A program made the translations under genes and the position numbers. A DNA stretch of 64,000 nt, from assembly GCF_057098645.1 (NCBI RefSeq), contig NZ_CM169472.1. The stretch is one strand, 5' to 3'. Below, piece by piece: positions 1-4,560 of the stretch (position 1 is the stretch's first letter; each line of letters begins with the position of its first letter). Under the pieces are notes generated by a model that ran no database searches, was not told the DNA's origin, and saw nothing but the letters and a program-made list of their open reading frames with translations.

Positions 1-46
1 ACCAAAAAATCACTAAAAGTGCTCTTTATTGGGGATGGATTTGCCC

Positions 47-952
47 CTATATTTCCAGACATCTGTTATCACTTAACCCATTACAAGCCCGCTGCCGCAG
101 ATATTCCCGTGGCGAGCGATAACCCAGCGCACTATGCGGATGCCATTCGTTATAATGCTCGAACGCCTCTGCAAGGTTCTTTGCTGCCGTTAACCCGTCT
201 GGTTTGGGCATGATACTGATGTAGTCACGCTTTATCGTTTTCACGAAGCTCTCTGCTATTCCGTTACTCTCCGGACTCCGCACCGCCGTGTTCTTCGGTT
301 CAAGTCCCAACATCCGGGCGAACTGGCGTGTTTCATTAGCCCGGTAGCATGAACCATTATCCGTCAGCCACTCCACTGGAGACGACGGAAGATCGTTGCC
401 GAAGCGGCGTTCCACCGCTCCCAGCATGACGTCCTGTACTGTTTCACTGTTGAAGCCGCCGGTAGTCACCGCCCAGTGCAGTGCCTCACGATCACAGCAG
501 TCCAGCGCGAACGTGACACGCAGTCTCTCTCCGTTATCACAGCAGAACTCGAACCCGTCAGAGCACCATCGCTGATTGCTTTCTTTCACGGCCACTCTGC
601 CTGTATGTGCCCGTTTCGATGGCGGTACAGCAGGTTTTCGCTCAAGCAACAGCGCATTCTGGCGCATGATCCGGTAAACACGTTTGGCATTGATCGCAGG
701 CATACCATCAAGTTCTGCCTGTCTGCGAAGCAGCGCCCATACCCGACGATAACCATACGTGGGCAGCTCTCCGATAACATGGTGTATACGGAGAAGCACA
801 TCCGTATCATCAGTGTGACGACTGCGGCGGCCATCCATCCAGTCATCGGTTCGTCTGAGAATGACGTGCAACTGCGCACGCGACACCCGGAGACAACGGC
901 TGACTAAGCTTACTCCCCATCCCCGGGCAATAAGGGCGCGTGCGCTATCCAC
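47..952 (-). CDS. insD: IS2 transposase OrfB (InsD), DDE integrase-type catalytic domain
   Basis: 301-aa ORF recognised as IS3-family OrfB; overlaps insC as expected for a -1 frameshift OrfAB arrangement. Confidence 0.9.
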
Positions 953-1275
953 TTTTTTGCCCGTCCATATTCAACGGCTTCTTTGAGGAGTTCATTTTCC
1001 ATCGTTTTCTTGCCGAGCAGGCGCTGGAGTTCTTTAATCTGCTTCATGGCGGCAGCAAGTTCAGAGGCAGGAACAACCTGTTCTCCGGCGGCCACAGCAG
1101 TAAGACTTCCTTCCTGGTATTGCTTACGCCAGAGAAATAACTGGCTGGCTGCTACACCATGTTGCCGGGCAACGAGGGAGACCGTCATCCCCGGTTCAAA
1201 GCTCTGCTGAACAATTGCGATCTTTTCCTGTGTGGTACGCCGTCTGCGTTTCTCCGGCCCTAAGACATCAATCAT
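910..1275 (-). CDS. insC: IS2 transposase OrfA (InsC), helix-turn-helix DNA-binding subunit
   Basis: ORF 910..1320; likely start at internal Met ([24 protein letters not shown]...), giving 121 aa. Confidence 0.85.
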
Positions 1276-1341
1276 CTGTTCTCCAATGACTAGTCTAAAA
1301 ACTAGTATTAAGACTATCACTTATTTAAGTGATACTGGTTG

Positions 1342-1391
1342 TCTGGAGATTCAGGGGGCCAGTCTATCTGGAGATTCAGGGGGCCAGTCTA
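1342..1391. repeat. Perfect 2 x 25-bp tandem direct repeat of the IS2 terminal sequence (tctggagattcagggggccagtcta)
   Basis: Read directly: 1342-1366 and 1367-1391 are identical; the first copy is the IS2 end. Confidence 0.85.
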
Positions 1392-1754
1392 AGATGTCCT
1401 TACCCTGCGCCATCTGCAGCTTCTGCACCAGAACCGGTGAATCTCACTCAACAGGCTTCATTTCCCCTGACGCCAGCCTGAATACAGCTGGCGTTTTCAT
1501 TTATAAACAGAAAGGAAAACCGATAATAATGGAATGGACGCCCCGACCATGAAGCAACGGTAGGATATTACTGATAAACCTTCCAGTGGAGGTGCGTTAT
1601 GGCCGTTTTAACGATTAGCATTGACCTGACAAAAAATGAATTCCAAATCCACGGTCTGGGTAGGAACAGAAAAATCTAAGCTCAGAAAACGGATTAAAGT
1701 AAGCGTCAACGGAGCACCGTATTGACGCTTATTTATTGGTGAGAACTACGTTCC

Positions 1755-2111
1755 ATGGCAGGAGTTCGTCAACACGGTTGGAGGGCCATTCCGGCAGTAT
1801 GCTCAGAATATGGCGCAGATACGCTTCCGGATCGATACCGTTCAGACGGCAGGTGCCTGCTTTTCCGGCAACAAGCAGGAATCTCAGTGCTGAAGCAGGA
1901 ATTAGAGGTAAAAACGCCCTACCGGGCCATGAATCACCCGGTCATTGGAGTAGTAACCAAAGCAGATTTAGCCAGCATGGAACAAATATCTTTGGTGAAA
2001 AGTTGGTTACGGGAAGCTGGAGCGCACAACGTGTTAGTAACCAGTGCAGTTAATAACAATGGAGTTACAGAACTTTTTGCCTTGCTGCATACAGAAGAAG
2101 GCTGTTGTTAA
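1755..2111 (+). pseudogene. yoeF: EutP/PduV-family GTPase-like C-terminal fragment (yoeF-like remnant), probably non-functional
   Basis: 118-aa ORF whose C-terminal half (VIGVVTKADLASMEQISLVKSWLREAGAH...) resembles EutP/PduV GTPase C-termini; no P-loop N-terminus in frame; position next to yeeX matches the K-12 yoeF remnant as I recall it. Confidence 0.45.
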
Positions 2112-2211
2112 TTTCGATTGGTTCTCAGATGAGAATGATGACGGTGATACACAGATAAGAATCAATGAGCAATGAGGGTTGCCGGGCAACCCTCATTGAA
2201 TAAAACGGGAA

Positions 2212-2541
2212 TTACTTCGCTTCGCCGTTTTTCATTTCGCCCATAGCTTTCAGCTTTTTGGAGATATCGCGGCGTTCTTTGGAGAGCTCGGCATTTTTGA
2301 TGATGTAATCGTCAACGCGATCTTCATAGTCACCTTTCATGCTGGCGATGATGCCCTGGATTGCTTCAACGCTCATCCCAGGCTTGATGTAATCGCTCAG
2401 GTTGTCCAGCAGCAGGACGCGCTTCTGGTTGTCACGGATCTTTTTCTCAACGTCCTGAATTTCACGTTGCAGTTTGTTCTTACGACGGAACAGACGAACA
2501 AATTCCAGTACGTCCTGGAATGAAGGCTTGGTAGTTTCCAT
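2212..2541 (-). CDS. yeeX: DUF496 family protein YeeX
   Basis: ORF 2212..2607 trimmed to internal Met ([30 protein letters not shown]...), 109 aa. Confidence 0.85.
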
Positions 2542-2712
2542 TTTTATACCCCTGATAATGTGAGAGTCGGATTCGTTTAAGCAACCGCTATTCGTTAGGG
2601 CCAACATTACTCATAGCTGCCGCAGATGACAATGCTTTTATCCCTTTTCACTATCATACCCTTTATCCTTGCTGAATCGAAGCAGCAGCAAGATGATTCT
2701 GAAGTTCAGGAA

Positions 2713-3771
2713 TTATTTGCGCAAGGCCCGGCAAATCAGATTCGATAGCAACTCAAGCTGATGCGCCGTTTCCATGTTCAGCCACACATAACCATAGATT
2801 GGTGTTTCCACTACCTTCAGGTCATGGTGGTTATTGAGCAACTGACGCAGCTCTTCCACAGCATCGTTCAATTTTTCCGTATTGGCAAAAACCGGCTGCG
2901 GATTACCTTCGTACAGCGCATGAACAAGGCTCAGCAGTATTTGCTGCATCATGTGCTGGGTATCACGAAGTTTTTGCGCGTTCAATAACACGAAATGGCT
3001 GGGGCGCGTGGCCCAGTACGCATTGATTTGCAACTCCAGCATACAAACCAGATTGCGGTTAATGGTCTGGATACCTTCATATATCGATTTTGGAATACGG
3101 GTTTCTTTGCTGGCGGGCGCAATCAGCCCACGCATTTTCACGGCATCGGTCAGGAGTTTTTGTAGATGGCTTTCCAGACGTGGGCGTTCGAGTAAGTTCG
3201 GTGAGAATGCAGATTGATAGACCCGATTATACTCGGTCAGACTTTTCGCCAGTTGAATGCGCCAGTGGATGAACGCCCGTTGTGGCCAGATACCGGTAAA
3301 CAACATTGCCAGTAAAGAGCCGAGGATCACATCGCCGCTTCGCCATAACGCCGTATTAATTTCACCTGTCGGGGAACCAACAACAATTGCCAGCGTCACC
3401 CCAATCAATAAACCTTGATACGGTTTCTTGCCCAGCGCCAGCCAACCGCAAAGAAACATAGCCGCCGCGCACCAGACTAACATCAGCGGTAACGAGATTA
3501 ACTCCAGTTGCAGAGCGATAAGACCTAAAATCGACCCCAACACCGTACCGCCAATACGTTCGAATGCGCGAGGGACAACGTTCCCCCAGAACGAGATTGG
3601 CCCCATAATCACCACCATGGTGACCAGCGGCCAGGTGCTTTCCGGGATAGTAAACAGGCGGATAATGAGAAAAGTGAGCAGGAATGCCAGCGCGACCCGA
3701 GTACCATGCACAATGCGGTAATGGCGGTATACCCGGATTTCAAACGGGCTTAATGACTTATCGGCACGCAC
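2713..3771 (-). CDS. yeeA: Inner-membrane protein YeeA (FUSC-like putative efflux protein)
   Basis: 352-aa ORF with multiple hydrophobic helices in the N-terminal half; conserved synteny yeeX-yeeA-sbmC. Confidence 0.85.
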   Translation of the reverse strand: MRADKSLSPFEIRVYRHYRIVHGTRVALAFLLTFLIIRLFTIPESTWPLVTMVVIMGPISFWGNVVPRAFERIGGTVLGSILGLIALQLELISLPLMLVWCAAAMFLCGWLALGKKPYQGLLIGVTLAIVVGSPTGEINTALWRSGDVILGSLLAMLFTGIWPQRAFIHWRIQLAKSLTEYNRVYQSAFSPNLLERPRLESHLQKLLTDAVKMRGLIAPASKETRIPKSIYEGIQTINRNLVCMLELQINAYWATRPSHFVLLNAQKLRDTQHMMQQILLSLVHALYEGNPQPVFANTEKLNDAVEELRQLLNNHHDLKVVETPIYGYVWLNMETAHQLELLSNLICRALRK

Positions 3772-3968
3772 GCAGAAACTCCGTAATGAAGATTAAAAGC
3801 GCTCATAACTCATCTGTCGGCCAGAAGGCGCGCCTCTGAATTATCCGACGGACAAACCGGGAACAGTGTAATTTCCCGGCAGGAGCGAAAAAATTGAAAG
3901 GCGCATCTTACTCTTTTCGCTTTCAAAAAAAGAGTGGTCATAGCGTTAACACACCGCCCTGAGATGAA

Positions 3969-4442
3969 TTAGTGATGTTTTGGCTGCACCGCAACATACA
4001 TTTCGATATCCCAGTACCCATCTTCCGCGCCATTGTTCAAATAAACCTCGAAGCAGGGCTTTGGTAACATTTCATAAGCACTGTCCTGCAAGAGGCTATT
4101 AAAGAACTGATACCAGGGTTTAGCAAAATCATCACCGACTACACGAGCCACCGCCACGGCATATTGACCACCTGAAATTTCTGTCAGAATGACGCCCTCA
4201 CTGTTTTCGGGGAGCGTAAAGTTATTCGGTACCGTCACGACGGTGTCGCAGCGTAATTTTTCGGCGGGTGTTTCATCCGGATTGTCGTAATAGACAGCAA
4301 CCCACTCCTTCGGCACAATATTTTTGCTATCTACCCACATCATCAACTGCTCAAAACCTTTCTTTACCGTCTGTTCCCACGGGCCAACGAGATGGAAACC
4401 TGCAACGGTACGTTTATCTTCCTGCTTAATCTCGTAGTTCAT
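3969..4442 (-). CDS. sbmC: DNA gyrase inhibitor SbmC (GyrI)
   Basis: 157-aa ORF recognised as SbmC; LexA box immediately upstream. Confidence 0.9.
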
Positions 4443-4459
4443 GACGCCTCCATTAATAC

Positions 4460-4475
4460 TGTTTTTATATACAGT
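4460..4475. promoter_or_regulatory. LexA (SOS) box upstream of sbmC
   Basis: ctgtttttatatacag fits CTGT-N8-ACAG; lies 18 bp upstream of the sbmC start codon. Confidence 0.7.
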
Positions 4476-4560
4476 ATAGTTGCAATATTAAAACCACAAG
4501 GAATGAGTGTTGATTATGCGAGCAGACTCGCACTCCTGCCAGTCTGCTGCAAAAGAAAGG

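Follow-up and report, generated by a model that had tools for sequence, protein, structure and literature searches.

Fragments of insertion sequences, a CP4-44-type island and pduV between an IS2 copy and tmaR in Escherichia coli

The window analysed here is a stretch of 64,000 nucleotides (NCBI RefSeq assembly GCF_057098645.1, contig NZ_CM169472.1). Between an IS2 copy and tmaR (yeeX) it carries 820 bases, positions 1392-2211, with an open reading frame (ORF) that resembles part of a GTPase. What are these bases made of, where does the GTPase-like piece originate, and does any part of the stretch still serve a function? A sequence-only reading had described a truncated EutP/PduV-type GTPase fragment and an IS110-family N-terminal stub at the eroded edge of a prophage or island, beside an IS2 copy without target duplication. 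Based on profile searches, alignments and comparisons to 5,426 complete E. coli genomes, we propose that 1392-2211 very probably represents the non-functional, eroded right-hand edge of a CP4-44-type genomic island, lying against the last 60 codons of pduV. This overall picture is in agreement with the earlier one, to which several corrections and additions are made below.

Composition of the stretch between IS2 and tmaR

The identity and the boundaries of every fragment between 1392 and 2211 can be read directly from the comparisons. Together with their immediate neighbours, the features are as follows.

1-35, plus strand: nt 10-44, from the 5' part of an accessory 'glutamine amidotransferase' gene; left flank of IS2, with a 100% match to this gene in many E. 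coli genomes
36-1391, minus strand: IS2 variant of 1,356 bp, i.e. a standard 1,331-bp IS2 (36-1366) with a tandem second 25-bp IRL terminus (1342-1366 and 1367-1391)
1393-1440, plus strand: last 15 codons and stop of the DUF957 island gene, from the RefSeq annotation of the 100%-identical stretch of RM9872 and alignment to an intact DUF957 tail
1441-1530, plus strand: island spacer between DUF957 and DUF4942, collinear with the intergenic region of an island lacking the IS110 element (locus L011)
1543-1698, plus strand (end somewhere in 1531-1543): left end of a decayed IS110-family element, from collinearity with a fuller pseudogene, the left boundary by comparison to L011
1699-1857, minus strand: terminal 159 bp of an IS66-family (ISEc23-like) element, from plasmid IS66 copies, mapping of the terminus and Pfam
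1755-2111, plus strand: chimeric 118-codon ORF, K-12 yoeF (b4538), with 34 codons antisense to the IS66 TnpC remnant, 24 from DUF4942 and 60 from pduV
1858-1928, plus strand: codons ~38-61 of the DUF4942 island gene, in frame with the pduV tail, from alignments to DUF4942 genes
1929-2111, plus strand: pduV codons 88-147 with the stop, from the end of the propanediol-utilisation operon, assigned by DNA and protein alignment to intact pduV
2170-2198, no strand assigned: hairpin with a perfect 13-bp stem between the pduV stop and the tmaR stop (-25.3 kcal/mol, z=-4.46)
2212-2541, minus strand: tmaR (yeeX), intact and convergent with the pduV relic (NF040881, E=4e-56), annotated in K-12 and RefSeq

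Between 1392 and 2211, three insertion sequences and two island genes have hence left nested fragments, abutting the tail of pduV. The IS66, DUF957 and DUF4942 fragments had been overlooked in the sequence-only reading, as had the non-GTPase nature of the first 58 codons of the ORF.

Of the 5,426 complete E. coli genomes, 3,170 carry the 820 bases at 80% coverage or more, and 5,421 carry at least their 3' part. The window is not from K-12: positions 1391-3000 match STEC O145 strain RM9872 at 100% identity and are collinear with K-12 MG1655 at 99.6%. The comparison to reference E. coli that had been suggested places the region on the annotated K-12 pseudogenes yoeD and yoeF, at the right end of the cryptic prophage CP4-44: yoeF (b4538) of MG1655 is the same 357-nt ORF as 1755-2111, and yoeD (b4642), a pseudogene on the opposite strand that overlaps the 5' end of yoeF, corresponds to 1729-1857 (minus strand). 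The 820-base stretch is already annotated in K-12 or RefSeq and holds nothing new.

The chimeric ORF yoeF and the pduV relic

The 118-aa ORF at 1755-2111 exists as described. The Pfam profile PduV-EutP (PF10662) matches only its residues 57-112, corresponding to profile positions 86-142 of 143 (E=6.7e-13), in agreement with a C-terminal part without P-loop, and NCBIfam TIGR02528 aligns over profile positions 87-141 of 142, scoring ~42-43 bits against a cut-off of 138. The resemblance to the C-terminal half of a GTPase had been assigned to the ORF as a whole; it holds for codons 59-118 (1929-2111), where the tail is that of PduV, but not for the first 58 codons. yoeF is a three-part chimera, and the tail of the lost pdu operon is its only recognisable domain. 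The full-length EutP/PduV domain of ~142 residues is not present in the ORF, and the G1 (P-loop) and G3 motifs, GPSQCGKT and DTPGE in intact PduV, have no counterpart in it. Compared to the intact PduV of strain MS1657, the relic has lost residues 1-87 and both motifs with them, whereas residues 88-147 are 95% identical (57/60), including the G4 motif TKAD. The relic cannot function as a GTPase.

yoeF is nevertheless still carried as an uncharacterised protein. The K-12 CDS entry reads 'putative uncharacterized protein YoeF', RefSeq calls a 60-aa version a protein, and the ORF has stayed open and at least 99% conserved across thousands of genomes, all of which would suit a real, expressed small protein, encoded by yoeF or by the 60-codon ORF at 1929-2111, in which the half-GTPase domain has been re-purposed. 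We consider this very unlikely. Neutral DNA inherited from a common ancestor within one species would show such conservation, and the reading frame is chimeric, its first 58 codons stemming from antisense IS66 sequence and a DUF4942 fragment. Not only are the P-loop and the G3 motif both absent, but the N-terminus also varies by lineage (118-aa, 121-aa and 60-aa versions), and no obvious Shine-Dalgarno motif precedes either ATG. Furthermore, no promoter-like signal was detected upstream of the ORF, with one site found at 1500-1527 compared to 2.0 expected by chance, and the promoter and terminator scan of the region as a whole remained at chance level. In our literature search yoeF occurred in gene lists only, and its origin was dealt with in none of the papers retrieved.

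Regarding that origin, the GTPase fragment is a chromosomal relic of the pdu operon and not island cargo. In the pdu-positive strains MS1657 and M10, a 147-aa pduV closes the series pduL-M-N-O-P-Q-S-T-U-V and is convergent with tmaR, and the relic occupies this orthologous position, that of the last pdu gene, after pduU. DNA homology to the intact pduV of pdu-positive E. coli opens exactly at 1929 (pduV codon 88), with 94.9-97.8% identity, and the spacing from the stop codon to tmaR is 100 bp in the window as well as in pdu-positive strains. The shared spacing, together with the 95-98% DNA identity from 1929 on, shows that the relic descends from pduV. The label of a CP4-44 prophage gene, on the other hand, implies that the fragment arrived as cargo of the prophage or island: a 2024 survey of the y-ome places yoeF in its 'CP4-44 prophage region' cluster (PMC11551758), and the fragment does directly adjoin island remnants. 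Arrival as cargo is, however, extremely unlikely, as pdu-positive E. coli without an island here carry full-length pduV after pduU at exactly this place, with the spacing and identity given above. The 3' end is moreover carried by nearly all complete genomes (the 5,421 mentioned above, a count in which island carriage was not recorded), and the annotated CP4-44 feature of K-12 stops at the equivalent of window position 1928, coinciding with the island edge at 1928/1929. An eroded edge of a prophage or island, as proposed from the letters, is accordingly present at 1928/1929, but the GTPase fragment lies outside it, as the tail of the chromosomal pdu operon.

The pduU-pduV pair has been kept intact at this site in 644 of the 5,426 complete genomes. 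Approximately 170 further genomes (e.g. strains JNEC-KY179 and 2017-02-2CC) contain another, longer pduV stub, starting from about codon 49, so the operon has apparently undergone independent truncations in different lineages. Strains that lack both the island and pdu carry a cbi gene remnant beside cobU on the other side of the scar. The pdu-positive state could in principle reflect re-acquisition by recombination instead of being ancestral.

The hairpin at 2170-2198 is also found in pdu-positive strains. It belongs to the chromosomal backbone and is probably the terminator of tmaR or a 3' stabiliser. That the 183-bp pduV tail and the adjacent hairpin have been kept for function too, either as a convergent terminator or 3' insulator of tmaR or through a newly adopted role of a small G4/G5-only peptide translated from yoeF or the 60-codon ORF, appears highly improbable. 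With the exception of this backbone hairpin, function is not likely anywhere in 1392-2211.

Island remnants and nested insertion sequences

Islands of the CP4-44 type, i.e. those bearing cbtA/cbeA, end in the order yeeW(DUF5983)-DUF957-DUF4942, which is intact in L011. Of this series, the window preserves, in unchanged order, the DUF957 tail, the spacer and codons 38-61 of DUF4942. The DUF957 gene is already a pseudogene in relatives and has here been cut further by IS2. For DUF4942, less decayed strains retain codons 1-61, whose identity to DUF4942 genes in other islands is 74-77% at the DNA level (E down to 1e-27) and 64% at the protein level. Neither the two pieces nor an intact 65-aa DUF957 gene is matched by Pfam or NCBIfam profiles, so both names rest on RefSeq annotation and alignments.

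Two further observations were made in this part of the island. RefSeq lists a 121-aa 'EutP/PduV family microcompartment system protein' (e.g. WP_001280454.1; L005 6399-6764, also at L006, L007 and L009), which is an in-frame fusion of 61 N-terminal DUF4942 residues and the last 60 residues of PduV. Just past the DUF957 stop, a terminator-like hairpin followed by a T-run can be read directly from the letters at 1470-1494, as ACGCCAGC-9 nt-GCTGGCGT, then TTTCATTT (1470-1502); it is conserved in other islands (L011), and was missed by the scan because its loop measures 9 nt.

Between spacer and DUF4942 lies the IS110-family stub. Its 26-codon ORF, MAVLTISIDLTKNEFQIHGLGRNRKI, does exist, yet at 1599-1679, ten bases further to the right than the approximate 1589-1669 first reported. 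After ...IHGLG the frame is shifted, and ...TEKSKLRKRIK, in the next frame, leads on to the break at 1698. The assignment of this ORF to the N-terminus of IS110-family transposases is borne out by less decayed strains. In strains 3502, NDM6, N2512 and Ec-042, the same ATG as that at 1599 opens a 1029-nt RefSeq pseudogene (frameshifted, with an internal stop) annotated as 'IS110 family (RNA-guided) transposase', whose start codon and first ~100 bp are common to the window, and positions 1391-1698 are 99.4-99.7% identical to the less decayed loci L005 and L006. The window retains ~33 codons, whereas the catalytic domains and the 3' non-coding end of the fuller pseudogene have been deleted.

The DEDD and Transposase_20 domains of the family (NF033542; PF01548 and PF02371) are found in the L005 pseudogene and not in the window stub. 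When its frames are stitched, the L005 pseudogene reaches 206.8 bits with NCBIfam NF033542, for a cut-off of 140, in an alignment that starts at residue 6, and the product also matches Pfam Transposase_20 and, weakly, DEDD_Tnp_IS110. Pfam and NCBIfam give no transposase match for the 26-aa ORF or for the 32-aa frameshift-corrected stub, so the identity of the stub rests on DNA collinearity, which derives it from an IS110 family member and which we regard as decisive. A mere chance resemblance to IS110 N-termini, for which this missing profile match might speak, has a practically negligible probability and is refuted by the collinear, 99.4-99.7% identical first 100 bp of the 1029-nt pseudogene as well as by the score of the latter, which passes the IS110 equivalog model.

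Compared to the island without the element (L011), IS110 is inserted just upstream of the DUF4942 start, with its left end at ~1531-1543 and its right end at ~L005 6380. The less decayed form, with the full IS110 pseudogene and the 121-aa DUF4942'-PduV' fusion, was detected in 656 genomes. No intact close IS110 relative (>90% identity) occurred among the matches listed from the E. coli collection. Rfam (E≤0.1) gave no match in window positions 1-4500 or in the fuller IS110 locus, which left no bridge or seek RNA to assign.

The IS110 stub is broken at 1698 by the IS66-family fragment. The terminal inverted repeat of the latter, GTAAGCGTCAACGG, with the typical GTAAGCG start, begins exactly at 1699, and an independent plasmid copy ends at the same base with a different flank. 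Throughout 1699-1857, identity with IS66-family copies on many plasmids is 96-99%. The part at 1729-1857 (minus strand), i.e. yoeD, encodes the last 42 codons and the stop of TnpC, and its product is matched by the Pfam profile DDE_Tnp_IS66_C (PF13817, E=5.3e-16). While an ISEc23-type IS66 normally measures ~2.5 kb, the window keeps 159 bp, having lost tnpA, tnpB and the greater part of tnpC; the IS66 sequence breaks off sharply at 1857, and the second end is absent. In the less decayed strains, the place of these 159 bp is taken by 1,311 bp (L005 5200-6510), which cover the remaining IS110 element and codons 1-37 of the gene that follows. The 1857/1858 deletion junction shows no microhomology.

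On the left, the stretch is delimited by the IS2 copy, which is intact and 99.6% identical to IS2F of K-12. IS2 (IS3 family) is a 1,331-bp orfA/orfB element with a 5-bp target duplication; the window copy differs in its extra 25-bp terminus and in its left and right flanks, GGGGA and AGATG, which confirms the reported absence of a target duplication. We note that this rare duplicated terminus is present in four other genomes, at three unrelated annotated loci among them. Both copies that were inspected (L014 and L015; ecpD and a DUF1398 gene) have perfect 5-bp duplications (AAAAC and ATAGT) outside the extra copy, indicating that the variant moves as a unit, using the outer terminus.

The surroundings of IS2 differ from those in MG1655. 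There the island extends leftwards via yeeW, cbtA, cbeA ... flu, and IS2F is located ~8 kb away inside yoeA, whereas in the window the IS2 variant directly abuts the DUF957 tail and the left flank belongs to a different accessory gene. In strain SK1144, ~32.8 kb of island separate the glutamine amidotransferase gene from the DUF957 remnant; the gene has the same orientation there and lies on the same side. By analogy with SK1144, and with 35 bp left of IS2 to go by, the simplest reading would be an IS2-associated deletion of roughly 33 kb, removing most of the island, in the source strain. The exact IS2 junction is present in none of the complete E. coli genomes of the collection.

Two other candidate explanations were rejected in the course of the junction analysis. 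The left flank is not a cbiP relic beside cobU but an unrelated accessory gene, and records that match 36-1519 in one piece do not share the IS2 junction but represent independent insertions at least 38 bp away. In total, three independent IS2 or IS2-like insertions were observed within ~250 bp in the yeeW/DUF957 tail of this island type in different strains (L003 at ~5330, L004 at ~5330 and the window at 1391), a clustering that may reflect local target preference.

Proposed order of events and implications

For the order of events and the deletion mechanisms we infer the following scheme, in which the second to fifth steps are reconstructed from only three extant states. The site would initially have held the pdu operon, ending in pduV and convergent with tmaR. 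An island of the arrangement ...cbeA-cbtA-yeeW-DUF957-DUF4942 would then have taken the site, along with the loss of the remaining pdu genes, joining DUF4942 codon 61 in frame to pduV codon 88. Next, an IS110-family element presumably entered just upstream of the DUF4942 start codon and subsequently decayed, before an IS66-family element entered the IS110 transposase gene after approximately codon 33 (1698/1699). A deletion from inside IS66 may thereafter have taken most of IS66, the remaining IS110 element and DUF4942 codons 1-37, leaving 159 bp of IS66 in place of the 1,311 bp. Finally, and in this strain only, the IS2 variant would have joined the DUF957 tail to the unrelated gene on its left, consistent with an IS2-associated deletion of the ~33 kb of island.

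In conclusion, the locus carries little biological weight, and the result is mainly an annotation clean-up of yoeF, which the survey cited above keeps in a cluster of prophage genes. The locus nonetheless illustrates neatly how nested insertion sequences decay, and public genomes offer four comparable states of it. These could be used as markers of the lineages in which E. coli lost propanediol utilisation.
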